Shown: positions 6,001 through 64,000, numbered from the stretch's first letter. The stretch: 64,000 nt of DNA from Crocinitomicaceae bacterium (GCA_044376455.1 JBIPMW010000308.1:8527-72526), one strand, 5' to 3'. Numbers and translations are program-made. Notes: generated from the letters alone by a model not told the origin.

Positions 6001-8699
6001 GAGGCAATGTCTATTGAAACAGTCTCAAGTTCTGCTAGTTTACTATTTAATCCTTGCATTAATCCAGAGACAATACTAGAGCCAGCATCAGCCATTTCTG
6101 GTATTACTTGAGATTTAACGTTAATAGCGTCAAGAATTTCTTTGTTTACACCTAATTTTTTTAAATCATAAATAGGATTAACATTTTCGGCAGATTCTTT
6201 AAGTTGAGTAAGGTTTCCTTTTAATGATGCCAATGGATGTCCAAATCTTTCGTTTTTTGGCACTTTAGCTAATAAATTATTAACTCGATCAATAGCATCT
6301 TGAGACGCTTTTCTTAAAGTGTTAGCATTTTGAATAACATAAGAGACTTCACGTTGAATGTCTTCAATTCTAAGGTTTTTAGCAATTGTCTGTTTATCAA
6401 TCTTGCTTAACTGTGGAGGAGTCGGTATTTTGGCTTCTGGATTGTCGGTCTGCTCGTATTTAATTAATGCTTGCTCGTATTCTGTTTGTTTTTTAAGAAA
6501 TGATGCTCGTTTTTTTTCTGGTAATAAATTTAGATAATTTGAATTAACACCACTACCAAACATTTTTAATTGAGGTGTTACTCCTGTTAATTGAGTTTGT
6601 ATATCTTTTGTTAATGAAGAAATAATTGATCCTAAGAGTGTAGGGTCAATTATTTCTTTTGGCTGAAATTGTGCAATACGCTCAAGTAATTTTTCAACAA
6701 TTTCTTTAGGCACATTTTCTGTAATTTTAGTAATTTTTAATGCAATTTTTGCTAATTGTTCTTTTGGTACAAGAGTATTTATATTTGTTATGTCTATTTT
6801 AGAAAAATCTCGTAAAATAGGATCGTTTTGCAGTCTTTTGCTTTGATTTACTCTTGCTTGTAAATTTTTTAAATTTTGATTTATTCTATTTTGAGCTTGT
6901 ATTGCGGGTGAATCATCATATTCAGCGTTTTGGGCTTCTTTTTGAAGTTGCTCTAAATCTTGCTGAATTAACTCGCTTCCAATAATTATAGATTTAGCGT
7001 ATTGAATAGATTGTGAAATACTATGCTGAAATAGATTATCAAACGTACCTAAAGTAGTTGTCAATCTTTGTTCAATTTGTTTACTTATTTGAGCAACCTG
7101 TTCATTCTGTTTTAAATTAAACTTTAAGTTTGGCTCAACAATTTTCCTAGAAGAAATTTGCGCCACTAAACGATTGTCTTCTCCTTCAGGAACAAACCCA
7201 AATCGTTGATAAATTGATCCCCGTCTTTTTCCTTTTTGATCTACATTTTCTGGCGATGCAGTTAATATAGCTTCATTAGTATTGCTTACAAACTTATTAA
7301 AAAACTCAGACACAGAGTTTTTTAGTTGAATTACTTCTTTTTTTGTTAATTGCGCTGCATCTCCTAGACTAGAAAACCGAGAATCTAGAGAAAAAGCAAT
7401 TTCATAAATATCTTGCCCAACACCAGGTATTGATTGTTTTGGTGTGGCTGTAAATCCGATCACTCGACCACCTACATTGTCGGTTCCAATATATTTACCT
7501 TCATCGTTAACAAAAAATGATTTATGATTTTCTCTTGCAATCAATCTAAATCCTTGTTCAATAATTTTTTGCTCTGATACTGCTTGCTTTAAAGCTCCGA
7601 TAAATTCTGCGCTACTTCCCTCTAAAGCTTTTTGAGTTTTCAAAAGAGAGTGAGATTGTTTAATAATTTGTAAAAAATCTTTTCCACTAAAAGCAATTGT
7701 TATTTTTAATAAATCTGCTAAATCTTTAGTAAGCTCACCTAAGTCATTTTCGGAAGATATAAGGTTTAATAACTCTGTTAGTGAAGTTATTGCTTTTTGA
7801 GATGCTTCTGGAAATTTTGAAAATTCGCCACTTCCTAAAACACTGAGCATATTTTGAAAACTTGCTATCGAATTATCTATAGATTTTTGAGTATAAGGAT
7901 TATTATTAGAAACTCCTATCTTGGTTTGTATTTTTTGGAAAGTTTCTGATGCAGTTAATATTCGTTCTCCAATCGGTTTATCTCTGCCTGTTATTTTATC
8001 TATTTTTATTTGTAAAGTATCAACAAGTTTATTTAATACTGGTTGAACAAACTGTACAGAACTAGCAGTTATATCTCCAGTTTTTTGCCCAGCAGATTCA
8101 AAGTTAAATCCAGTTTTTCTAGTAAAACTTTGTTCAAATCCTTGACTAAAACTTTTAGTCAAATTAAATCCAATTCCTTGTATTAAAGAATTGCTTATAG
8201 TTCCAATAGCTGTAGGCTTTAATCTAGAAACAGCTTTAACAACTTCTCTGATTTCTTTTGTAACCGCTTTAATTTCTGTTAATAATTCAAGATTTGCATT
8301 TTTGATAGATACTTCTACTGTTTGTTTAATCTCATTAGAATATTTTTGGCTAGAACTTTTAGACTGAACTTTCGCCTGAACTATAACTGTTTTGTTTGCT
8401 ATTTCTTGTAGTTCACTGTCATCAACTTTAATCTTGATAACTTTTTTACTAACTTGATCAATGTGTTTTCCTTTTTCTGATAAATGTTTATTTAAACCGT
8501 GTAATGGACGGTGATCTACTGACGGAACAATTGTTAGCTTAGGAATACTTTGTTTAAGAGACCATTCCATGTCTCTAGTGATTTTTTGGGCATAATCCTC
8601 TAAGGAAGAAAGCTGGTCTTTAGCCGATTTGATACCACTATCATATTGGGCTGTATTTAGCCCTAGACCGATTTCTAAAGTACCAAGTGATAAAGACAT
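1..8699 (-). CDS. tape measure protein, partial (C-terminus beyond window start; at least 2899 aa)
   Basis: The minus-strand frame is unbroken from ATG 8699-8697 (overlapping the upstream TAA as TAATG) to the window edge. It is absent from the ORF track because it has no in-window stop. N-terminus MSLSLGTLEIGLGLNTAQYDSGIKSAKDQL. Long Q/E/K/L-rich helical stretches. It lies directly after the chaperone frameshift pair. Confidence 0.85.
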   Translation of the reverse strand, partial: MSLSLGTLEIGLGLNTAQYDSGIKSAKDQLSSLEDYAQKITRDMEWSLKQSIPKLTIVPSVDHRPLHGLNKHLSEKGKHIDQVSKKVIKIKVDDSELQEIANKTVIVQAKVQSKSSSQKYSNEIKQTVEVSIKNANLELLTEIKAVTKEIREVVKAVSRLKPTAIGTISNSLIQGIGFNLTKSFSQGFEQSFTRKTGFNFESAGQKTGDITASSVQFVQPVLNKLVDTLQIKIDKITGRDKPIGERILTASETFQKIQTKIGVSNNNPYTQKSIDNSIASFQNMLSVLGSGEFSKFPEASQKAITSLTELLNLISSENDLGELTKDLADLLKITIAFSGKDFLQIIKQSHSLLKTQKALEGSSAEFIGALKQAVSEQKIIEQGFRLIARENHKSFFVNDEGKYIGTDNVGGRVIGFTATPKQSIPGVGQDIYEIAFSLDSRFSSLGDAAQLTKKEVIQLKNSVSEFFNKFVSNTNEAILTASPENVDQKGKRRGSIYQRFGFVPEGEDNRLVAQISSRKIVEPNLKFNLKQNEQVAQISKQIEQRLTTTLGTFDNLFQHSISQSIQYAKSIIIGSELIQQDLEQLQKEAQNAEYDDSPAIQAQNRINQNLKNLQARVNQSKRLQNDPILRDFSKIDITNINTLVPKEQLAKIALKITKITENVPKEIVEKLLERIAQFQPKEIIDPTLLGSIISSLTKDIQTQLTGVTPQLKMFGSGVNSNYLNLLPEKKRASFLKKQTEYEQALIKYEQTDNPEAKIPTPPQLSKIDKQTIAKNLRIEDIQREVSYVIQNANTLRKASQDAIDRVNNLLAKVPKNERFGHPLASLKGNLTQLKESAENVNPIYDLKKLGVNKEILDAINVKSQVIPEMADAGSSIVSGLMQGLNSKLAELETVSIDIASIPLEITKQINKIQSPSKEFEKIGKNIVEGEIKGIKSKEKDLQATMAIIAKNMIENLYLATKNPVNIDPFFPHPQSSGGGIPPIPPINRPVASSDPEPEPNKQAKSASKIIQNIDNPTQLQKIGKVFEVIKNQLNNLPEPIKRVLLGARTLLSAFAGFQILQQASMFFRQFTTDSFEAALNMERLETALDFSTENAESSLAKLKIQADRLGLSFLSSAKNYQQFSASTINTPLEFQKDKIFEGITLGLATRGASSQQQDRALLAITQIASKGRVSMEELNSQLGEAMPGALQIAARSMGLTSQEFIKLVESGSILAEDLLPKLATQINLESAGGLSVIDDTAFAQVARVQNQIELLRISLGESLLNASKLGLPLITKGLEILTKHGQSLATVLTSISIVTVGSFVMVLKNLGLIDLTLKALGVTAKTTGGAISQIGVGLLKGLGWTALIFGVMEAFKGLYQYINAGSEESKRSLKSTQESLQELRRLLEKPLPTSTVITDSATAIQQFKNNREKDKSLEFTAGGLSDTTQILRLSTDTFSDTRITEFTGKLDTLRQKAKDLKVDEIIASGDADVKKATSVRQEIAKVNQEIQALTEKYFPQIGLIVNEIASTEERITAIKKVLDDPESSKFQKDNASIQLEVAEAQLRKLKESQEKYNEAVKENLVNYQRLTEQINKVARALSNIEFISNGRTILSETNIKRQVLSGNLKRFEIDLVIREQSLSIVKDQFNSLNELLATKEKELQNTLTDQINQRITELMPELNGLDFRTALQQGIVSPEAIGDRLQQLGDQAPFELKQVLEAAKQQASIRRQTLTIDKSIVDTELEIANARRERARNARQASIVGANVNERIATLRQLPLGGPVASYRDALSEVRNQERLLEEAYHRLESASDDPNVIQQEVDNTRLALEQARANLLQQQTSLQDYYRNLDRQIIDFNRQIEDYRRQIEDAQLSAFKENRSLSESYSDLVRELDKNLLNAQNQLLDATDRIRVQQVKNRLLIPGTSDAGKELGDIFLEFVQGQADIASRGRTFQSRTEEIETSYISTLRNIRNLQEQQQDAERNRLRTIEDIKRTQENLNRTLADLIRQTNKELGFIPQSIKDIVTNLNTLPEPIKLINSELVAIPPNIKTSGEDLVKSIEETAEAIRKAKEGLILPAPSNFIPAPVWNGGSFLPPPPSQLPSNPNRLTRRGQELSQHLDNPRVKAFLDTIAYAEGTANMPNKGYNTLFGHGQFSSLATHPNIHVPFGNTTSTAAGRYQALNFVWDEEKVKLGLKDFSPISQDLLALSRISMRGGLDELLEGDIRGVINAVSKEWASFPGANYPGQGMKRMEDLLNFYQQSLRKYQPNATRTTAELEALQYNDSPANTGAVNRVRQIRRNQGGQGANVPSQSPVVPSASLQLPQNLQKGSNILVRKSGRRTPEGLEILQFDLIKNGKVVDTVIGGVTGRPSTQSAIGTNRTNIRGSETPLPDGNWSIDANHASRYLRQFNSGQLTSYKPSQIPLGTVGPAWIGAEPKFSTGRSQIGFHLDDLQLGSAGCLVFTDPNQIAKIANWVVQSGANSMFVDLDGKQTSRGGQGGQGGPEFSSSPSITQELPSPPSIAQLPTLPNQNQDNFWDADLPPVPKDNLINFQNPNLPPVPNLPTANLGDAAGQIRAAETAEQNSQEFLRRLEEQQNLNNALDRLIKFRQQQEEDTRTLERTLRDASENVADLTINSKGYLTVQEEINKSATEVSRQYRSQIESLEDQRRTLLLNADAMKKRSEVMKDELRKELEINPNTPISVVEETTKAIEILAKNAELAKERVGILDQAIEQLGKNQGVATLEASFRRTRDTVRSIRDRLNDLTIQRMKLENQSRPTLFDDSAILTERISLQKDKEELEDFLEPYKDLPQYAEYVANIRSEWEKLAELRLERVALDASPNRGAAESFFSDIREGKGIESAFGSLGLNVVTKFVEGITKPAIDALTLAIDGFTKPITQAFESVFNAIIGPVGNFFTNA
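1330..1765 (-). other. possible L,D-transpeptidase-fold (YkuD / DUF2778-like) domain inside tape measure protein
   Basis: The segment ...RGSETPLPDGNWSID...IGFHLDDLQLGSAGCLVFTDPNQ carries a His...Ser-x-Gly-Cys signature. This is motif-level resemblance only. Confidence 0.35.
2020..2400 (-). other. GH104 lambda-R-like lytic transglycosylase domain inside tape measure protein
   Basis: NPRVKAFLDTIAYAEGT..STAAGRYQALNFVWDEEKVKLGLKDFSPISQD..WASFPGANYPGQG matches the phage lambda R motifs KAFLDMLAWSEGT, STGAGRYQLL, LGLKDFSPKSQD and WASLPGAGYGQ. Confidence 0.8.
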
Positions 8700-55433: not shown

Positions 55434-56402
55434 TTAAGGATTCATCGTAATACCATCGGTAATAATTGGCATCAACAAGCTGCCGCCCCCAGCCACCTTG
55501 CTAACTACTAGATGAAAGTGATCTTCTGGCGTTGGTTGGGCTGGTGGGACTGTTTCAACTCTGTGTAGACTATTTATCGGTAGGTCTTGAGTAGTAAATA
55601 ATAAGAACGGCCTCGCTATTCCTATTGGATAATTAGTGCCGTAATCGGTAGTGCCGTTGTCACGGAAAATAAGATTGGAAACACTAGCATTAGGTGTAGG
55701 GGTAGCACAGGCTATAGAAGTAATCGGTAATACAAATTGAGGATTTGCACCGCCTGGCGGTGATACTCCAGGTATTGTCATTTCTTTGATTCTTCCCGCC
55801 CCCAAGTCGGGACCCGTTCCATTACCCAATCCATAAGCAGTAATGTAATCCAGTGGATAGGAATTATTGTTCCCAAAATAAGCAACTGATGCTGGATTAT
55901 CGCAGTATCCGAAGTAGTGGAAGGAATATATGTTGCCAAAAGTATTTAATCCAGTATTATTAATCGCAAACATAGCGATACCTTTGTTATCTCCACAAGC
56001 GTAAAAATATCCTGACGCCGCGCCGTTATAGTTACCAACAATTGTAAATCTATTGTCGTTCAGTTGAGTTTTTGTTTGGTAAGTGTGTCCTGACCAGCCC
56101 CAAAAAAAAGGGTTTTGTCCAATAGTATTGCTAAAGAAGATTTGCGCCCGATGTCGGCCACTACTCCAGCCAAAGCTGCCATCGACATCCCCGAATTGTA
56201 TTAAATCAGTATCAACTGCTGGAAACCGAATATTAATCTGGTTATCTGGATCAGGTTTGACAAACCGATGAGTTGAGGTGATACCAATGGCATCTAAAAA
56301 TAAAAGAAAATTAGCCAAATTGAAGTAAACTCCGCCAGCGTCAGCGGTACGCCAGCCATAAGTGGCAAATGTGTTTCTTGAACCAACAACAGGTAAGGTC
56401 AT
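55434..56402 (-). CDS. hypothetical tail protein (receptor-binding candidate)
   Basis: 322 aa, G/N/T/F-rich. Start moved to MTLPVVGS with AGGAG 9 nt upstream. Flanked by the 110-bp repeats. Confidence 0.5.
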   Translation of the reverse strand: MTLPVVGSRNTFATYGWRTADAGGVYFNLANFLLFLDAIGITSTHRFVKPDPDNQINIRFPAVDTDLIQFGDVDGSFGWSSGRHRAQIFFSNTIGQNPFFWGWSGHTYQTKTQLNDNRFTIVGNYNGAASGYFYACGDNKGIAMFAINNTGLNTFGNIYSFHYFGYCDNPASVAYFGNNNSYPLDYITAYGLGNGTGPDLGAGRIKEMTIPGVSPPGGANPQFVLPITSIACATPTPNASVSNLIFRDNGTTDYGTNYPIGIARPFLLFTTQDLPINSLHRVETVPPAQPTPEDHFHLVVSKVAGGGSLLMPIITDGITMNP

Positions 56403-56406
56403 AAGA

Positions 56407-56562
56407 TTAACTCCTAACAATATTTTGGGGACAATAGATACCAGATTGATAAGGGACGTTAATAGTTTTTTCTATTCTAATAGGAAAAGTTGGTAGGCAA
56501 TAGATTCCAGATTGATAAGGAACCACTAAAAGATTGCGTGGAAAAAACAGATACCTAGACAT
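56407..56562 (-). CDS. possible 51-aa ORF encoding only the PYQSGIYC repeat module
   Basis: MSRYLFFPRNLLVVPYQSGIYCLPTFPIRIEKTINVPYQSGIYCPQNIVRS. The ATG overlaps the end of 56555-57220. Confidence 0.35.
   Translation of the reverse strand: MSRYLFFPRNLLVVPYQSGIYCLPTFPIRIEKTINVPYQSGIYCPQNIVRS
56414..56523 (-). repeat. 110-bp direct repeat, copy B
   Basis: See copy A. Confidence 0.9.
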
Positions 56563-57220
56563 ATTTCCTTCCTACAGTAAAAAACAAATGTTTGGGGGTA
56601 CTGATAGCAGAAACAACAAGTTCTACTCTGCTCCCTACATCAACAAAATTTCCTGTTGTTACGGGAACAGTTAATCGAGTAGAAGTAATAGATAAATTAT
56701 TTAACCCAGGGACATCTACTCCATTAATTTTAACTGATACAGTAGCTGTACCGGATTGATTTATGGCACTAAAACTTAGGATGTTATACCCTCTTAATAA
56801 AGCAAAATCAAGAGGATAAGTTTGAATGGTAGGAGCTTCTATATCCCCAGAATATTGATCAAAATTAGAAACGAGTACCCAATTTGTACCATTGAAAAAT
56901 ATTGTTTCTCCAGAAACAAGAAAAACTGTTAGACCAGTAAAAGGCTGCCAAAAACTCCAAACTCCCGTAGGCAATCCGTTTAAACCAACTACAGGGTAGG
57001 CTATTTGATTGGTCTTTCCCGCCCATGCCCCAGTAGCTCCTGTAGGGACAATATAGTAGCTATCTATATTCTGGGGGTTTGGGGGTGAAGTAAGGGTACG
57101 GGAAAGAATAGGAGCGGAGCCTATAGAAATAAGTCTAAATAGCTCGTTTGCTATTTGTTCTTTATATTCCTGAGAAGATGTCAGTAATAACCCATTATTC
57201 CCGAATATTGTCCCAGTCAT
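56555..57220 (-). CDS. DUF2793-like tail/fibre protein
   Basis: ..PPNPQNIDSYYIVPTGATGAWAGKTNQIAY....WSFWQP..G..VF......FFNGTNW fits the DUF2793 pattern known from GTA-type tails (from memory). Confidence 0.5.
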   Translation of the reverse strand: MTGTIFGNNGLLLTSSQEYKEQIANELFRLISIGSAPILSRTLTSPPNPQNIDSYYIVPTGATGAWAGKTNQIAYPVVGLNGLPTGVWSFWQPFTGLTVFLVSGETIFFNGTNWVLVSNFDQYSGDIEAPTIQTYPLDFALLRGYNILSFSAINQSGTATVSVKINGVDVPGLNNLSITSTRLTVPVTTGNFVDVGSRVELVVSAISTPKHLFFTVGRKYV

Positions 57221-59018
57221 CCCCGAATTCCTCTCCCATCTTGGCTTTTACCCAGTTATTGTTTTCAATTTTACAAAGACTTTTCAAGTAAGCCTCGTAA
57301 TTATTCAAGTCTTTTACAGTATAGTCTTTTTTAAAGATTGCGTGCAACTTCCAAGCTTTAGGAGGCATCCAGTCCTTGCTTAATTTAGGATTTTTGAATG
57401 TTTTTATCATCCATCCCCGGACACTATCAATATGTTCACCTTTCTTGTAAGCTTCTTTGAGGGCGTACTTATAGGCTAGGTATAACTCTCTATCCTTGTC
57501 GTGAATTATAATTTCTAGTCTTTCGTTAGCTATTTGTTTTTTCTCTTTTGTTGGAAATTCGTAACCACAATGAGGACAGATACGAGCAGATGCGTAGGTT
57601 ATTTTACCGCAGTTTTCGCACTCTTTAATCGGAGCTTGTCCTTTTTGAGTATCGGAAGATGTAGAGAGCTTAGGATAATCTACATCTTCAATAAATCCGT
57701 GTTCGGTTACGTTCCCCGCTTGATCCAATACCAAACAATCAACTTTATCTAACCAAATACAGAGCCTTTGTCCCCGACCAGTCATCTGAATATAAAGGGT
57801 TCGGCTTTTGGTCGGTCTGGCGTGAATAATACAAGAAATTGCGGGTAGGTTAAATCCTATTCCACAAGTGTTAATATTTACAATCCCTCTCAATCTTAAT
57901 TCAGCTACTTTTCTAAATATTTCTCTTCTTTCCTGTTCTGGTGTTTCGGCTGTTATAACAGCCGTAGGGATACCCCTTTCGTTAAATTCTGTACAGAGGC
58001 TTTTGGCGTGTTCCACACCCGCCGCAAAACAAACAAATTGTCTCCCCTGACCGAGCCTACGATACTCGGAAACCGTCGATTTTACCGCTTCTAAACAACG
58101 AATTTCTAACTGACTAGCATCAAAGTCACCGCCATTAATTTTTACCCCTTTAGTATTTATTTTATTTTTAGTTCCGAAATAGACACAGCCAACAAGCGCA
58201 CCCCGTTCGATCATTCCTTTTGGAGTAGGCCCAGTCACTTGAACCTCGAAAATATCCCCTAACTCTTCACGTTTCGATAACCGCCACGGGGTTGCGGTTA
58301 GACCAATTACGAGACGATTATCTACTGGTAGGGGTTTCCCCGAAAAAAGATGCTGTTGCTTACGAATCACTTCCCATGCCGAGTTTATTTCTTGTAAGAT
58401 TTCTTTTGATTCAGCGTGAATTAAGTTAAGATGTTTGTATTTTTCCTTAGCTTCATCAAAAGTTATTTTGTAAGTTTCTATATCTTCTCTTTCTACGGCA
58501 ATACCTAATACTGCTAATTCATCACGAATGTCTTTGATTGAGGTTGTCTGTTTACCATTCTTAAGATTAGTAAAATTATCCTTAAACCATTGACAATAAG
58601 CTGATAAATGAACCTCGTCGGCTAGTATTACTTCGGGGTTAAACCAAGTAATACTGCGTCCTCTAGACAAGGTTTGAGTTGTTGCAATCTGAACTAATTG
58701 ACTTCTATCTTCTTTGTAGCTACCAGCAATTACTCCGGCAGTTAATCCAAATTTCCCTAGAGTTTCTAGGGTTTGCTGAATGAGTACGGTAAACGGTACT
58801 ACAATTAAAGTCCGTCGCTGTCTTTTTACGGCGGCATCATAAATTATTTGACAGAAAAATACTGTCTTTCCCCATCCGCAAGGGGCAACTACTAAGGCTC
58901 TTTTATGGATTTTTAGAGCATCATACAGTTCTCTTTTAAGAGTTTTTTGGTCGTCTCTTAATTGAATTTGTGGCTTAGGCGGTACAAAAAGTGTTTGTGT
59001 TTGTAGTGTTAGTGTCAT
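57195..59018 (-). CDS. SF2 DEAD/DEAH-box DNA helicase with C-terminal zinc ribbon
   Basis: Walker A APCGWGKT, motif II ADEVH, GLTATPWR, and CENCG..CPHCG. Confidence 0.85.
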   Translation of the reverse strand: MTLTLQTQTLFVPPKPQIQLRDDQKTLKRELYDALKIHKRALVVAPCGWGKTVFFCQIIYDAAVKRQRRTLIVVPFTVLIQQTLETLGKFGLTAGVIAGSYKEDRSQLVQIATTQTLSRGRSITWFNPEVILADEVHLSAYCQWFKDNFTNLKNGKQTTSIKDIRDELAVLGIAVEREDIETYKITFDEAKEKYKHLNLIHAESKEILQEINSAWEVIRKQQHLFSGKPLPVDNRLVIGLTATPWRLSKREELGDIFEVQVTGPTPKGMIERGALVGCVYFGTKNKINTKGVKINGGDFDASQLEIRCLEAVKSTVSEYRRLGQGRQFVCFAAGVEHAKSLCTEFNERGIPTAVITAETPEQERREIFRKVAELRLRGIVNINTCGIGFNLPAISCIIHARPTKSRTLYIQMTGRGQRLCIWLDKVDCLVLDQAGNVTEHGFIEDVDYPKLSTSSDTQKGQAPIKECENCGKITYASARICPHCGYEFPTKEKKQIANERLEIIIHDKDRELYLAYKYALKEAYKKGEHIDSVRGWMIKTFKNPKLSKDWMPPKAWKLHAIFKKDYTVKDLNNYEAYLKSLCKIENNNWVKAKMGEEFGDDWDNIRE

Positions 59019-59051
59019 GATATTAGGTGATTTTGTTAGCTTTAGATATCT

Positions 59052-59585
59052 CTAGTCCAATTCCATCAAAGCACTGCAAATATTTGCCATTATTTTTGGA
59101 TTTTCTGCAAGTAATTCCCCGCAAAAGTCATCGCACCAAAACCGCCATAGATTACTTCCAGCTATCACATTTCTTTGATTGCATATAAAAATAAGGTAAT
59201 CAAATAACTCCGTATTAGCAGACAAATCAAACACTTCTCTTGCTATTTTAATTGGTTTAATTTTTGTGTTTTTTGTCATACCAATACATAAATTGTCTTT
59301 CCAGAATTTTTCTTCTTCTGTAGGATCAAAACAATATTTTATTCCTAAAATCATTGTTTTACCGCATTGTCGAGTTCGTTCTTGTAGTCTTAGTAACAGA
59401 TTTTTTTCGTCGTCAGCTTTTCCAATCTTAAGATGGCAAAGACTAGGAGTCCAAAGTAGATAAAATATTTTTTGCTCTTGACTTGGTTCGCACCAATCAT
59501 CAGGAATTAAATATTCAAAATCTTGTCCGAAGATTTTTTCACAGTATTCTGCATCACTTTCGTTGTCATTAAAAGTCATAATCAC
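59052..59585 (-). CDS. hypothetical protein
   Basis: 177-aa ORF. The weak IFYLLW..LKIGKADD pattern may be GIY-YIG/T5orf172-like, but I do not call it. Confidence 0.5.
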   Translation of the reverse strand: MIMTFNDNESDAEYCEKIFGQDFEYLIPDDWCEPSQEQKIFYLLWTPSLCHLKIGKADDEKNLLLRLQERTRQCGKTMILGIKYCFDPTEEEKFWKDNLCIGMTKNTKIKPIKIAREVFDLSANTELFDYLIFICNQRNVIAGSNLWRFWCDDFCGELLAENPKIMANICSALMELD

Positions 59586-59586
59586 C

Positions 59587-60075
59587 TCAAAATTGTATTT
59601 CAGTTTTGATAAAATTTGATATAGCTTCTGCTATTTCGCCTGTCTTGTCACGAATAAAGGTAATCTCCTCTTGTTTGTCAGAGATTCCAAATCCTGAGCA
59701 ATACCCATTATCTAGATCACCATACTCTTTACACATGGCTATTTCTTTTATTTTTCCTGTTCTTAAATCAAATATCGTACCAGTTAATCTGATTTCTGGT
59801 ATTAAGCCAAAGCTTGGTATAAAACCACAAAAAACCTCGACATGGGCTATTGTCTGACTATCTAAAAGAACCCTAGCATTAGCTATTAGGCAAATTTGTT
59901 CATCAAATTTTAATTGCCATTCAGACCAAAGAAAATTTTTAAACGACCAACTGTTCCAGTCAGAATTAGCATTATATTCTTTATAACAAAAAGATGCAAT
60001 CTTTTGTAGTAGTCTTGTTTTGTGTGTGCGTTCTATAGCTTCTAACTTTTTAAAAAACTCTTCTGCTGTTGTCAT
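59587..60075 (-). CDS. paralog-array member (C-terminus AISNFIKTEIQF)
   Basis: 162 aa. See the array finding. Confidence 0.6.
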   Translation of the reverse strand: MTTAEEFFKKLEAIERTHKTRLLQKIASFCYKEYNANSDWNSWSFKNFLWSEWQLKFDEQICLIANARVLLDSQTIAHVEVFCGFIPSFGLIPEIRLTGTIFDLRTGKIKEIAMCKEYGDLDNGYCSGFGISDKQEEITFIRDKTGEIAEAISNFIKTEIQF

Positions 60076-60124
60076 GGTGTCACCTCGGTTTGTATTTCAT
60101 GTTCGATAAATGAAAGAATGTTAA

Positions 60125-60628
60125 TTACAATTTGTGTACCTTTACCCCATAAACATATTCCATCTTGTATAAAAGCCATTTTTCTAAAATAGTCTCCAAT
60201 ATCTTTTCTGTTTCTGGAATTAAAATATTTAACTCTTCTTTGTTTCCGCTTGGATAAAGATTATAACTTGAGGTTTTATCGTTTCTGTCAAGACTGTAGT
60301 TCCAACGCAGAATAACCAAAGACCCGCCTAACGTACCTTCTATTGTGATTTTTTCAAGGGATTTGTCCGCTAATTGATATTCAGTCGAAATTTCTCGACA
60401 TTCAATCAAAACTTCATACTTTTTGTTTTTTATTAACTTACCATAAGTTTTGTAAAGATAATCTTCTTTAATTATCAAAGTTCCTATTAAACGAATACAT
60501 TTATCGTCTGCGACCGTATCCCACTCCGAGATGTCCACTGTATCGTATTCGGAGATACTCATCTGCTCAAAAGTTTTTTTAAAGAAATCTCTGATTTCTT
60601 TTAGTGACTTTTCTTTTAATACTTCCAT
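60125..60628 (-). CDS. paralog-array member (..ELNILIPETEKILETILEKW..)
   Basis: 167 aa. Confidence 0.6.
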   Translation of the reverse strand: MEVLKEKSLKEIRDFFKKTFEQMSISEYDTVDISEWDTVADDKCIRLIGTLIIKEDYLYKTYGKLIKNKKYEVLIECREISTEYQLADKSLEKITIEGTLGGSLVILRWNYSLDRNDKTSSYNLYPSGNKEELNILIPETEKILETILEKWLLYKMEYVYGVKVHKL

Positions 60629-60638
60629 TGTTTTTACC

Positions 60639-60971
60639 TCAAATACAAATAACTAAATCACCGACGCAAACATTGATAAATTTCTCGCAATCGTATCGAG
60701 AATTGTTGCAAGCTTGAATAATAGAGGTATTTTCCTCAACAGAAATAACCTTCCCCGACCCTTTATAAAGGATACGATGACCAATGAAGTCTCTAGTTAT
60801 TGGGTCGTATATTGGCTTGTTTGTAATTGAATAAACCAAGTGAGAGGCATCTATTCGGATACAATTTAATTTACCACGGTTTATTACTACTTTAAAATCA
60901 TCGATAACTTTAATTACCTTAGCTGGATACGTTCCTTTAGTCGGAAGTCCTAGTTCTTCGTTTGTTGCCAT
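60639..60971 (-). CDS. hypothetical protein inside paralog array (unrelated fold)
   Basis: Start moved to MATNEELGLPTKG. It ends ..NVCVGDLVICI. Confidence 0.5.
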   Translation of the reverse strand: MATNEELGLPTKGTYPAKVIKVIDDFKVVINRGKLNCIRIDASHLVYSITNKPIYDPITRDFIGHRILYKGSGKVISVEENTSIIQACNNSRYDCEKFINVCVGDLVICI

Positions 60972-60975
60972 TGTT

Positions 60976-61472
60976 TTAAGTGTCTGTAGCCTCAATTGTT
61001 TTAATAAAGCCTAAAATAGTCTCCATTATCTTTGTTGCTTCTGGAATCAATATCTTTAAACCTTCGTTATCTCCCGCAACATCTGATTCTTCTTTAGTTG
61101 AAATAAGCTGAACCCAGCTTTTATTTTCTTGGCGATAATCTCCTATTAGCAACATAGTCACCTGAGTTTGTGTCAAATAACTTTCTACTTTAGTCTCTAA
61201 AATGTTAGACGGCTTGGGAAGATATTTAATTGAAATATAATATCTTCCTAGTAAATGTCATGAGGAAAAACTCCTTGTAGTAATTCGCTAGGATAAACAA
61301 CAAAAATCACGCCTTTTAAGACAAGCTCCCCATATAAATGCTCGAAAGTATTGGTGTCCTTGTCGTAGGAACTTACGCCGAGCTTCTGCGCTTCAAGACT
61401 CCAATTTTTAGGATGCTTAAAAGTTTCTTTACAGAAAACCTCAATTTGTTTTAATGCTTCTGTTTTGTTCAT
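60976..61472 (-). pseudogene. decayed paralog-array member split into out-of-frame N- and C-pieces
   Basis: 61248-61472 holds the N-half (EALKQIEVFCKETFK..VYPSELL) and 60976-61176 the C-half (..GDNEGLKILIPEATKIMETILGFIKTIEATDT). Together they match the intact 61478-61888. Confidence 0.6.
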
Positions 61473-61477
61473 TAGCG

Positions 61478-61888
61478 TTAATCCTCAGCTTTAATTGTTT
61501 TAATAAAGCCTAAAATAGTCTCCATGATCTTTGTTGCTTCTGGAATTAAGATATTTAAGATTTCGTTGTCTCCTTCACTTTTTGGCTCTTTTTTAATTGA
61601 ATCTATCTCAACCCAATCATGTTCGGTGACTGCCCCTTTTACCTTAACTACTAAAGTTTTAGACGATTTAGAACGATACTCAACCCAAACATTGTATTTT
61701 CCTTTTAGCTCGTTTGGATAGAGAATATTGATAGAGCCTTCTAGTACTAAATCGGTGAAAACATCTATTTGCCTTAGTTTAAGAGTCCATTTTGAGTAAT
61801 CAATCATTTTATAGGCATTATCACAAAAAACCCCGATTTGTTTTAATACCTCTATCTTTTCATAAATATCTATTTCCCATGTGCCCAT
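61478..61888 (-). CDS. paralog-array member (..EVLKQIGVFC.. / ..ILIPEATKIMETILGFIKTIKAED)
   Basis: 136 aa. Confidence 0.6.
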   Translation of the reverse strand: MGTWEIDIYEKIEVLKQIGVFCDNAYKMIDYSKWTLKLRQIDVFTDLVLEGSINILYPNELKGKYNVWVEYRSKSSKTLVVKVKGAVTEHDWVEIDSIKKEPKSEGDNEILNILIPEATKIMETILGFIKTIKAED

Positions 61889-61901
61889 CTGTTACTACTA
61901 T

Positions 61902-62264
61902 TTAATCTTGAATCTCATCAAGGATGAAGTTGAAAATGTCTAGCATTACTTTTCGAGTTTCTCTATATTTGTTATCAAAATAATCAGATTTTGATTTTCT
62001 AATATAATCAAATGCTATTTGATTCTCATAAGGATAGTTATTGTCTTTATCGTCAGGGTTTATCCATAATCCAAATGAGCCCACATAATACGCTTCGCAT
62101 GAAACACGCTTAAGCGGACCATCTAGAAAAACCTCTATTATTAATTCATCAGGAAAAAGTGGACACTGAATTATATTATTTTCAGAGTCAAGATTCCATC
62201 TTAAACTTGGATAACTTCTGTGACAGAATTCAAATATTTTCTCTGTTACTTGTTTTATGTCCAT
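61902..62264 (-). CDS. paralog-array member (MDIKQVTEKIFEFC.. / ..DIFNFILDEIQD)
   Basis: 120 aa. Confidence 0.65.
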   Translation of the reverse strand: MDIKQVTEKIFEFCHRSYPSLRWNLDSENNIIQCPLFPDELIIEVFLDGPLKRVSCEAYYVGSFGLWINPDDKDNNYPYENQIAFDYIRKSKSDYFDNKYRETRKVMLDIFNFILDEIQD

Positions 62265-62290
62265 TGATTTAACTCCTATTGGGTGAATTT

Positions 62291-62313
62291 ACTAGACAGA
62301 TATTCTGTCTAGT
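62291..62313 (-). other. conserved intergenic hairpin ACTAGACAG-atatt-CTGTCTAGT
   Basis: An identical copy lies at 63199-63221. Confidence 0.7.
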
Positions 62314-62320
62314 AATGTTT

Positions 62321-62761
62321 TTACTGTTGAATTTCATCTTCAATAAAATTAAAGACTTCTCTTACCATTTTTCTGGCTTTTTTTACTATACCCCAGCTAT
62401 CATCATTCCACTCGTCATGAGTGGCAATCATAAACTCTAACTCGCTGTTTTTGTTATGGTTTAGACTTACTTGAAAACTACCTAACCAGGGAAGTAAAGA
62501 TTTTTCTTCTGATTGAGGTATTAAAAGCGACCCCAGTATATAATCGTAAGTAGCTTCTTTTTCGTAAAAATAACGCTCTTGTTTTTTATATGAGCGAATT
62601 TCTATCTCTAATTTAAATAAAGAGCAAGAGCCAAGAATGAGTGAAATAAGTGAAACATCTCTACCAATATCACTATAAGAATAATTCCATGTCCATTTTA
62701 AATCTGGGTATCTTCCCTCACAAAAATTAAATAACTTTTCCGCTATTTGTTGTGTGTCCAT
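62321..62761 (-). CDS. paralog-array member (MDTQQIAEKLFNFC.. / ..EVFNFIEDEIQQ)
   Basis: 146 aa. Confidence 0.65.
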   Translation of the reverse strand: MDTQQIAEKLFNFCEGRYPDLKWTWNYSYSDIGRDVSLISLILGSCSLFKLEIEIRSYKKQERYFYEKEATYDYILGSLLIPQSEEKSLLPWLGSFQVSLNHNKNSELEFMIATHDEWNDDSWGIVKKARKMVREVFNFIEDEIQQ

Positions 62762-62776
62762 TACTGTTACTCCTGT

Positions 62777-63172
62777 CTATTCTTGGATTTCATCTTCAAT
62801 AAAATTAAAGATTTCTCTCACTATTTTTCTGGCTTTTTTACACAGATTCCATTTATTTTTATCTAGCGGCTTAGTTGTTTCATTAAAATCAGACCTGTAA
62901 AACTCTAGCTCACTATCTTTATCGTCATTTAGTTGAACTAAGAAACATCCCCTAAAATTTATGTCTTGTAGGTTAAGATAGCCTCGAATACATTCAATTC
63001 TTAACCAATCTTCAACAATCTTTAACTCTAATTTAAATAAAGGACATGAGCCAGAAATAAATACAACAGGACAAACTGTTTTTGAACATTCTTTACTATA
63101 GTTCCAGTCTAAATCTGGGTATTTTTCTTTACAGAAATTAAATAATTTCTCTGTTACTTGTTGTGTGTCCAT
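62777..63172 (-). CDS. paralog-array member (MDTQQVTEKLFNFC.. / ..EIFNFIEDEIQE)
   Basis: 131 aa. Confidence 0.65.
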   Translation of the reverse strand: MDTQQVTEKLFNFCKEKYPDLDWNYSKECSKTVCPVVFISGSCPLFKLELKIVEDWLRIECIRGYLNLQDINFRGCFLVQLNDDKDSELEFYRSDFNETTKPLDKNKWNLCKKARKIVREIFNFIEDEIQE

Positions 63173-63198
63173 TACTGTTACTCCTATTGGGTGAAACT

Positions 63199-63221
63199 AC
63201 TAGACAGATATTCTGTCTAGT
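63199..63221 (-). other. conserved intergenic hairpin ACTAGACAG-atatt-CTGTCTAGT
   Basis: Copy of 62291-62313. Confidence 0.7.
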
Positions 63222-63228
63222 ATTGTTT

Positions 63229-63636
63229 TTATTCTTGAATTTCATCAAGGATGAAGTTAAAAATATCTAACATTATTTTTCGATATTGTTTGACTAACTC
63301 CCAATTTTCTGCGTTCCATAGCTTATATCTATAATACGCAAGATTCTCAAAAACTATGGTGTCTTCATACCGAGAACTTATATCCTCAATCGGAGGATTT
63401 ATCCAAATTTTAAAGCTTCCTATTCGGTTGTCTTGCCATCGAACACACTCAAGTGATCCATCTAACAAAATTACACACTCAAGTGATCCGTCTAGCCAAA
63501 TTTTTCCATATCTATCGAGATAAGGTGATCGAATGACTTTATCGTAGTCATCTGTAAAATCGCAATTCCAGTCTAAATCTGGGTATTTTTCTTTACAGAA
63601 ATTGAATAGCTTTTCCGCTACTAGTTGTGTGTCCAT
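63229..63636 (-). CDS. paralog-array member (MDTQLVAEKLFNFC.. / ..DIFNFILDEIQE)
   Basis: 135 aa. It contains an internal LDGSLECV duplication. Confidence 0.65.
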   Translation of the reverse strand: MDTQLVAEKLFNFCKEKYPDLDWNCDFTDDYDKVIRSPYLDRYGKIWLDGSLECVILLDGSLECVRWQDNRIGSFKIWINPPIEDISSRYEDTIVFENLAYYRYKLWNAENWELVKQYRKIMLDIFNFILDEIQE

Positions 63637-63663
63637 TACTGTTACTCCTATTGGGTGAAACTA

Positions 63664-63813
63664 CTAGGAAATACTTACTGTTTCTACTACGATACTGTGA
63701 TGCCCATTGCGGGCTAAAGCTTCTAGATAAGCCATTAATCGGCTTTCGTGCATAGAAGTCTTGATCCTGCAAGGCTTATTTTTTCCATCTATTGTTTTAA
63801 TTGTGTATCTCAT
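63664..63813 (-). CDS. possible small protein (49 aa)
   Basis: MRYTIKTIDGKNKPCRIKTSMHESRLMAYLEALARNGHHSIVVETVSIS. ATGA coupling with the upstream ORF. Confidence 0.35.
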   Translation of the reverse strand: MRYTIKTIDGKNKPCRIKTSMHESRLMAYLEALARNGHHSIVVETVSIS

Positions 63814-63968
63814 TGTTTCCAATTTTTTGAATTTTGCCTACAATAATCTAAATGCGCCTTAAGTCTTTTGGCAGACTTTTGTTCTTCCGTCCCTCTGATA
63901 AGTCCTTTGTTTTTATCAATGTTATCTTGACTCGATAAGTTTTTCCACACTTTTTTAGTTTCCTCCAT
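63810..63968 (-). CDS. possible small basic protein (52 aa)
   Basis: MEETKKVWKNLSSQDNIDKNKGLIRGTEEQKSAKRLKAHLDYCRQNSKNWKQ. Below the track size cutoff. Confidence 0.35.
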   Translation of the reverse strand: MEETKKVWKNLSSQDNIDKNKGLIRGTEEQKSAKRLKAHLDYCRQNSKNWKQ

Positions 63969-64000
63969 GATTACACCTTTACTTATTGTCTAAACAATAC

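Follow-up and report, generated by a model that had tools for sequence, protein, structure and literature searches.

A new phage-restricted superfamily of small proteins encoded in a variable tandem array of an uncultured phage

The DNA analysed here, 64,000 nucleotides (nt) deposited under Crocinitomicaceae bacterium (GCA_044376455.1, JBIPMW010000308.1:8527-72526; hereafter the window), comes from an uncultured phage with a GC content of ~36% that belongs to a lineage of ~87-kb phages. On the minus strand, between positions 59587 and 63636, we found eight members of one protein superfamily, seven of them intact and one carrying a single-base deletion. The superfamily is new, phage-restricted and has no known relatives. 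A reading made from the bare sequence (below, the sequence-only reading) had reported about nine fast-diverging paralogs of an unrecognised family in this region. All of its open reading frames (ORFs) are present; the number of members is eight, with the ORF at 60639-60971 (g110) unrelated to the others. We consider it very likely that the description given below, which comprises the family, its predicted fold and the recombining cassette, is correct.

Members A, B, C and D turned out to be related along their full length, with BLASTP E values (composition correction applied) from 3e-10 to 5e-33. Under the same settings, the second group was held together by the matches of E to the two halves of F (F2, 3e-18; F1, 1e-7) and to H (1e-5), and the pairwise matches of member I to the other members were weak. 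The division into A–D and E/F/H, which had been proposed from shared terminal motifs, was borne out by these comparisons, and profile–profile comparison united all members in one superfamily.

For the latter, group profiles were built from 63 related viral contigs and compared with hhalign, with 30 column shuffles as the null in each case. Group 1 and group 2 aligned over 113 columns (score 37.9, probability 82%, shuffles 11.9 ± 2.5), group 2 and member I over 127 columns (49.4, 94%, 12.4 ± 2.5), and group 1 and member I over 17 columns that cover the N-terminal helix only (29.0, 33%, 12.1 ± 1.5). The profile–profile scores were 10–15 standard deviations over the shuffled nulls, and control profiles (reversed, or made from the unrelated g110) reached a probability of at most 0.6%. 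A merely compositional likeness of the termini had been named beforehand as a result that would speak against the family. Since the null controls scored low and the real profiles high, the likeness is one of homology, not of composition.

AlphaFold2 models computed from family alignments had a predicted local distance difference test (pLDDT) score of 86.7 and a predicted template modelling (pTM) score of 0.83 for member D (helix 3-17, six strands, helix 98-118), and of 81.6 and 0.78 for member E. The order of elements is the same in both: an N-terminal helix, six strands and a long C-terminal helix. Additionally, an independent model of a D homolog in BFVD superposes on our D model with a template modelling (TM) score of 0.96. 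Both terminal helices were modelled with pLDDT ~95 as an integral part of the globular fold. The distant members D and E are predicted from these models to share one fold, in which two terminal helices flank a six-stranded antiparallel sheet.

The contrast between shared termini and divergent middles, already noticed in the sequence-only reading, is clear in the group-1 alignment: mean column entropy was 0.93–0.99 bits in the helices versus 1.69 bits in the sheet and loops, which vary freely and with indels. Across representatives of the 16 subfamilies described below, conservation is confined to helix positions of hydrophobic or aromatic character, a single Cys, two Trp and the FIxxEIQ motif at the C-terminus, and no constellation of catalytic-type residues was found in the alignment of all 16. 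The members are soluble, hydrophilic proteins of 120–170 amino acids (aa), with a grand average of hydropathy (GRAVY) of -0.2 to -0.5 and an isoelectric point (pI) of 4.4–5.3, versus a median of 5.3 for the ORFs of the window. We rejected the idea that acidity points to DNA mimicry, as such pI values are ordinary for this genome.

Searches for relatives support the earlier view that the family is unrecognised. Scans of all members, g110 and J (the ORF next to the array) against Pfam, PHROGs, PADLOC and NCBIfam gave no significant match; for nine array and neighbouring proteins, the best library E value was 0.02 and all matches were far below curated cut-offs. A search of the PDB by hmmsearch with the A4 and A5 profiles returned nothing below E = 0.2. 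Foldseek, which had been suggested as a check, was run with the models of D and E and matched no known structure at the TM > 0.5 required for a match: nothing in the PDB had E < 0.03 or TM > 0.43. The best look-alikes there (E = 0.03, TM ≤ 0.43, root-mean-square deviation 5–15 Å) come from several unrelated folds, so that membership of none of them can be claimed. SRPBCC/helix-grip proteins, BamC-N, type III secretion chaperones, CapZ, p32/MAM33 and frataxin were rejected on these grounds, as they share generic architecture only. In BFVD, the sole strong match of the D model was a member of its own family.

Word-indexed protein searches yielded 196 and 150 clusters, none with a functional name or a Pfam domain, which originate from metagenomes, ‘uncultured phage’ records, Microcystis-binned contigs and the phage MaMV-DH01. 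An exhaustive hidden Markov model scan of 1.84 billion (1.84e9) representative proteins found 12 representatives and no distant annotated relative. Among 185,579 cellular genomes (one per species) there was one match, on a 10-kb contig of a metagenome-assembled genome (MAG) that is probably misbinned. With tblastn against 50,697 phage genomes, the family was confined to five isolates of Fukuivirus (MaMV-CH01, CH02, DL01, DL02 and DH01); Ma-LMM01 and MaMV-DC gave no match. A second scan of viral contigs with the group-2 profile revealed no new genomic context, and domain fusions were discarded as a hint of function, the extra-long homologs being upstream read-through or insertions only. Literature searches retrieved no description of the family, and the MaMV-DH01 paper is silent on ORF157-159.

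To describe the variation of the array, family ORFs from 65 records were sorted into subfamilies at 60% identity by single linkage. In the ~65 related phage contigs this resulted in 16 subfamilies, each of them approximately single-copy per locus (c0, for example, has 40 genes in 39 loci). A comparison of copy number across related phages, another of the proposed checks, gave 2–11 members per array (median 4) and 17 arrangements in the 25 loci that are complete with both flanks. No subfamily is universal among the arrays, and their order is broadly collinear: c3/c4, c0, c5, g110, c1, c2, c6. Along the window it reads c3, c14, c4, c0, c7, c9 (frameshifted), g110, c1, c6.

The paralogs of the window differ strongly at synonymous sites, with a synonymous divergence (dS) of at least 1.25 or saturated in the middles and of 0.2–0.9 in the termini. 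Each of them represents a separate old subfamily whose orthologs occur in other phages. Taken together, saturated middles and separate orthologous subfamilies indicate that the paralogs are old, and recent duplication is unsupported. Recent gene amplification of the ‘accordion’ type was rejected on the same saturation of dS; the only recent duplication lies inside member A, where the internal LDGSLECV repeat pointed out earlier proved to be a 30-nt tandem repeat at 63443-63502. We also rejected diversification by a diversity-generating retroelement, because indels set the middles apart and saturation affects every position in them. A repeat search found no template-like copy, and no reverse transcriptase was matched by Pfam among the scanned proteins of 57195-64000, the remaining window not having been scanned for one.

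What does change between close relatives is the content of the array. In contigs 97–99% identical to the window, a single 126-aa c10 gene replaces the module of g110 and member H (~60110-60954), and the left breakpoint of this swap, as seen between the window and contig L002, falls inside the segment of F that encodes the C-terminal helix. In many ortholog pairs, the middles reach 97% identity or more, whereas identity in one 66-nt terminus drops to 61–88% (12 of 190 pairs in c0, 65 of 231 in c1, 4 of 55 in c3 and 22 of 120 in c5). The donors of the swapped termini are other subfamilies: in the c0 gene that heads the array of contig L037, the 5′-terminal 66 nt match a c3 gene at 100% identity and the middle is 99% c0, and the 5′ end of the c0 gene of contig L029 is 100% identical to a c4 gene. 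Synonymous divergence among ‘orthologs’ is higher in the termini than in the middles because of recombination at the conserved ends.

These patterns show that array content is reshaped by homologous recombination within the conserved helix-coding ends. Unequal recombination between the ends of neighbouring paralogs deletes the intervening genes and produces functional chimeras. Turnover consists of loss, module swapping and chimerisation of old subfamilies. The ongoing birth and death of copies claimed earlier thus holds for death and exchange, as attested by a frameshift, a module swap, chimeras and the 17 arrangements in 25 arrays, and fails for recent birth, given saturated dS and old subfamilies. 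With conserved flanks, variable content and breakpoints at conserved sequence, the locus falls into the operational category of a phage hyperplastic accessory region. It offers a clean example of how conserved gene ends drive loss, swapping and chimerisation in a phage multigene family.

Selection was assessed from pN/pS, computed as pooled pairwise Nei-Gojobori estimates, which are crude and inflated by recombination and low divergence. In all 12 family subfamilies tested the ratio was 0.32–0.63, which is 3–6 times the value of the adjacent helicase (0.10); g110 had 0.26. Within c0, c3 and c5, the middles gave 0.7–1.0 and the C-terminal helices 0.07–0.21. Values below 1 indicate that the genes are functional; the members are thus functional but loosely constrained or partly diversifying. 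As for the fast divergence asserted in the sequence-only reading, it is true relative to the helicase only.

On the minus strand from 59052 to 63636, ten ORFs are tightly packed, with spacers of 1–56 nt. They are listed in Table 1 together with the adjoining features.

Table 1. Members of the array and associated features in the window
Feature	Coordinates	Strand	Description
Member A	63229-63636	-	135 aa, subfamily c3, group 1; 30-nt tandem duplication inside
Member B	62777-63172	-	131 aa, subfamily c14 (rare), group 1
Member C	62321-62761	-	146 aa, subfamily c4, group 1
Member D	61902-62264	-	120 aa, subfamily c0 (most widespread), group 1
Member E	61478-61888	-	136 aa, subfamily c7, group 2
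Member F	60976-61472	-	subfamily c9, group 2; frame broken by a 1-nt deletion
g110	60639-60971	-	110-aa ORF outside the family; conserved companion, orphan
Member H	60125-60628	-	167 aa, subfamily c1, group 2; two-gene module with g110
Member I	59587-60075	-	162 aa, subfamily c6, group I; N-terminal extension, C-terminal motif NFIKTEIQF
J	59052-59585	-	175-177-aa ORF separating the array from the helicase; no detectable family membership
SF2 helicase	57195-59018	-	ResIII + Helicase_C + zinc ribbon; conserved downstream flank of the array
Hairpin 1	63198-63222	-	intergenic RNA hairpin directly 3′ of member A; 11-12 bp stem, 3-nt loop
Hairpin 2	62289-62315	-	intergenic RNA hairpin directly 3′ of member C; stem as in hairpin 1
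TT(T/C)CACCCAATAGGAGT(A/T)A element	63173-63203, 63637-63667, 62265-62290	gene strand	upstream of B, A and D

Member F had been described as a decayed pair of ORFs. It is indeed broken, and it is one gene, not two: compared with an intact 164-aa ortholog (L002 5599-6093), it lacks one base between 61255 and 61254. The contig that carries the intact ortholog is 99.1% identical to the window over 3 kb. The deletion may be a real mutation or an assembly error. At the other end of the array, member I terminates in AISNFIKTEIQF, exactly as first read.

The companion ORF g110 shows at least 80% identity across all homologs found, unlike its variable neighbours. In 35 of 43 loci the next gene is of the c1 (H) type, and the two genes are swapped together. 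The homolog search for g110 gave close orphans only, with no match to a family or structure. J is acidic (pI 4.7), contains 10 Cys, has no family match and occurs in only 4 loci, those of the closest relatives. In contig L002, a 408-aa transposase of the ISL3 family (7256-8482; DDE_Tnp_ISL3, E = 4e-69) is inserted in the J ortholog of a lytic-type phage genome; the insertion corresponds to window position ~59468, inside J, and its flanks are 94–99.9% identical to the window.

Two intergenic hairpins had been called identical, and their core stems are. Their free energies are -15.5 kcal/mol (62289-62315) and -15.2 kcal/mol (63198-63222), with z scores of -6.4 and -5.9. In 13 of 65 loci, the same hairpin is located behind a c3, c4 or c11 gene, and variant stems stay paired only by means of G-U pairs on the gene (sense) strand. 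Pairing retained in this way suggests an mRNA element, possibly one for processing, stability or attenuation. Read on the plus strand, the hairpin sequence scores as an intrinsic terminator with a T-run; no Rfam family matches it. A promoter scan gave 21 promoter-like sites, compared with 20.1 expected by chance. Just upstream of the start codons of B, A and D we observed the conserved element of Table 1, which includes the ribosome-binding site. A 102-nt repeat that covers both this upstream element and the first 24 codons shows 93% identity between A and B.

In all 25 complete loci, the array lies in constant orientation between a primase-like gene and the superfamily 2 (SF2) helicase. Upstream of the array, related contigs carry a gene for a DUF3987 primase-helicase-like protein of 994 aa. 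Downstream, the helicase is followed by tail-fibre-like, glycoside hydrolase, tail assembly, endolysin, methyltransferase, thymidylate synthase and ribonucleotide reductase genes. The helicase of the window is closest to Cylindrospermopsis phage helicases, at 30% identity. Adjoining the tail-fibre-like gene, we noted a 328-aa ORF (55434-56420, minus strand) that matches nothing in Pfam or PHROGs. A hypothetical gene present in Ma-LMM01 and in the MaMV phages is 77–86% identical to it at the nucleotide level, and the ORF may represent a module for host recognition that Microcystis phages have in common.

The Fukuivirus version of the cassette consists of three genes (c0, c11, c1) directly upstream of a DnaG-type primase; MaMV 149L belongs to subfamily c11 and is not E-like. 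The DNA similarity of the window to Fukuivirus is only patchy. With MaMV-CH02/DH01, the window has 86–89% nucleotide identity over members D and H, and the remaining genome is dissimilar. Ma-LMM01 (L066 3478-5236) has a two-ORF insertion sequence element exactly where MaMV-DH01 (L067 3563-4864), CH and DL hold the three-gene cassette. The site upstream of the Fukuivirus primase looks like an insertion hot spot.

We infer that the window phage infects Microcystis, because it shares patches of 78–89% nucleotide identity with phages isolated on M. aeruginosa, because homologs are binned with Microcystis MAGs, and because a shared cassette requires co-infection. The comparisons with Fukuivirus indicate that the cassette has been exchanged horizontally between unrelated phage lineages of one host.

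Regarding function, we tentatively favour a role of the members in counter-defence or host takeover, which we regard as possible but short of probable. Roles in host takeover, anti-defence or immunity, as raised in the sequence-only reading, would fit both the distribution of the family and its dynamics. The two helices would form a constant scaffold whose coding sequence doubles as a recombination handle, and the variable sheet and loops would constitute a specificity or binding surface. Members would act without catalysis, by binding partners that vary between Microcystis strains. These partners would most likely be host defence proteins or other host proteins, because defence and restriction-modification systems are exceptionally abundant in Microcystis, with an unusually large number of genes for them (PMC5780444, PMC8262939). 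Each phage would have a reshuffled selection of binders that serves as an accessory for counter-defence or takeover. The accessory character of the array is apparent in its variable size (2–11 members) and in Ma-LMM01 and MaMV-DC, which have no cassette. As cellular genomes are all but devoid of the family, we disfavour an origin from cellular immunity proteins.

A bolder version of this proposal, which we find doubtful, is that of a combinatorial counter-defence library with a two-helix scaffold, a hypervariable specificity sheet and a built-in recombination handle, whose specificities are exchanged, deleted and spliced. Co-infecting and even unrelated Microcystis phages would then trade specificities via the scaffold coding sequence. 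If true, phages would possess an analogue of cassette-based antigenic variation, directed against one of the most heavily defended bacteria known.

Several points weigh against a counter-defence role. The members have no likeness in sequence or fold to any known anti-defence protein in the libraries or by Foldseek. Their acidity is not special among the ORFs of the window, the solvent exposure of the variable sheet face is assumed, and pN/pS is never clearly above 1, the estimate being confounded by recombination and low divergence. Furthermore, the array sits in the replication region, and the Ma-LMM01 primase that adjoins the cassette site belongs to the middle genes and not to the early ones that serve host takeover (PMC5780444). 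That the array repeatedly adjoins primase genes could point to a replication role instead.

Such a replication role is the main rival, although we consider it unlikely. The paralogs would be accessories of the replication module that adapt the phage primase or helicase to variable parts of the host replisome (DnaB, the single-stranded DNA-binding protein SSB, the clamp) or inhibit those parts, and the family would serve DNA replication or its takeover instead of counter-defence. This would fit the position and single orientation of the array between the DUF3987 gene and the SF2 helicase in every complete locus, the independently placed Fukuivirus cassette directly upstream of a DnaG-type primase, and the assignment of the Ma-LMM01 primase to the middle (replication) class. 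SSB-type proteins have acidic C-terminal tails that dock partners, and the conserved acidic tail FIxDEIQE of the members may resemble them. However, arrays range from 2 to 11 copies with no universal subfamily, core replication factors are not normally so variable, and Ma-LMM01 and MaMV-DC replicate without the cassette. The argument from timing is weak, because 162 Ma-LMM01 genes are in the middle class (PMC5780444).

Competition between phages is a less likely explanation, and we give it little weight. The members would cause superinfection exclusion or inhibit co-infecting Microcystis phages, with rival phages driving diversification. As the cassette is common to two unrelated lineages at 86–89% nucleotide identity, both must co-infect the same cells; the fast turnover of members and their patchy spread among phages also agree with this explanation. 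Known exclusion proteins are usually membrane-associated, however, whereas the members are hydrophilic by GRAVY, and with no Pfam match there is no domain hint of a membrane or exclusion role.

It is very unlikely that the members are internal proteins packaged in the capsid and injected with the DNA, in the manner of the T4 internal proteins (IP), with the N-terminal segment as a capsid-targeting signal. The array recalls the T4 pattern of tandem polymorphic genes with one conserved end that vary between related phages, but here both termini are conserved and modelled as integral helices of the globular fold. Moreover, the array lies in the replication region, with the helicase between it and the nearest tail-type gene, and the same cassette occurs in two lineages with only patchy DNA similarity.

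We regard as slimmer still the chance that g110 and the H-type member form a two-component module, either toxin and antidote or effector and chaperone, with the other members as spare or orphan partners in a polyimmunity-like arrangement. The linkage of the two genes and their joint swapping, together with type III secretion chaperones among the weak fold look-alikes, would agree with such a module. On the other hand, those fold matches are not significant (TM ≤ 0.33), c1 occurs in Fukuivirus without g110, no toxin domain was detected in g110, whose homologs are all close ones, and the family is absent from cellular genomes.

Finally, functionless decaying duplicates, ORFan ‘junk’ kept by hitch-hiking, are a hardly credible explanation: one frameshifted member and a pN/pS that is high relative to neighbouring genes would be compatible with decay, but this is already largely refuted by purifying pN/pS in 12 of 12 subfamilies (down to 0.07–0.08 in the C-terminal helix), by reading frames that stay intact in dozens of contigs despite saturated paralog divergence, and by the retention of the horizontally acquired cassette in Fukuivirus.

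Counter-defence remains the reading we favour tentatively, and the locus provides a candidate set of at least 16 subfamilies together with a natural contrast of presence and absence among cultured phages infecting M. aeruginosa: MaMV-DH01, CH and DL have the cassette, which is missing from Ma-LMM01 and MaMV-DC. Although Microcystis, a former of toxic blooms, is so well defended, our literature searches found no identified counter-defence genes of Microcystis phages. With no convincing structural neighbour, the family is also a new target for studies of structure and function.

Among known systems, T4-type hyperplastic/IP loci consist of small accessory genes in tandem that have one terminal segment conserved and the remainder unrelated or divergent, with exchange at the conserved ends, and the IP proteins have been linked to countering host restriction. 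The array resembles these loci in its tandem small accessory genes, in content that differs between close relatives and in recombination at conserved ends. It differs in that both termini are conserved as structural helices of one globular fold and the members are homologous over their whole length. In addition, there is no capsid-targeting or cleavage motif, no similarity in sequence or fold, and the array is in the replication module; the features that define T4 IP (an N-terminal capsid-targeting peptide as the only conserved part, L/I-x-E cleavage and proximity to head genes) are absent from it.

With anti-CRISPR and other anti-defence loci, the array shares small, mildly acidic proteins without catalytic-type residues, a patchy distribution, horizontal transfer between unrelated phages and a heavily armed host. 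Unlike in those loci, the genes here are paralogs of one superfamily, and they match no known anti-defence family or structure. No aca-type helix-turn-helix regulator was found in g110, J or the small upstream ORFs with Pfam, NCBIfam and PADLOC.

Polyimmunity loci (SUKH, Imm) and viral US22-type arrays are similar in that they comprise tandem diverged paralogs with a small alpha+beta fold, thought to bind diverse partners. In contrast to polyimmunity loci, the present family has no Pfam match and is essentially absent from the 185,579 cellular genomes. Neighbouring genes scanned against Pfam or PHROGs included no toxin genes, and SUKH or Imm structures were not among the 50 Foldseek matches listed per search for the D and E models.

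In general architecture (a helix, an antiparallel sheet and a long C-terminal helix), the members are like two-layer alpha/beta sandwiches such as the helix-grip/SRPBCC proteins. Poxvirus multigene families and ‘genomic accordions’ are likewise arrays of viral paralogs that differ between strains in copy number and content, which is read as adaptation to host defence. The present array differs from the accordions in that its paralogs are saturated at synonymous sites, with no recent near-identical tandem amplification. The closest analogues (T4 hyperplastic/IP, anti-defence, polyimmunity and poxvirus families) are systems that work alike and are not relatives of the family.

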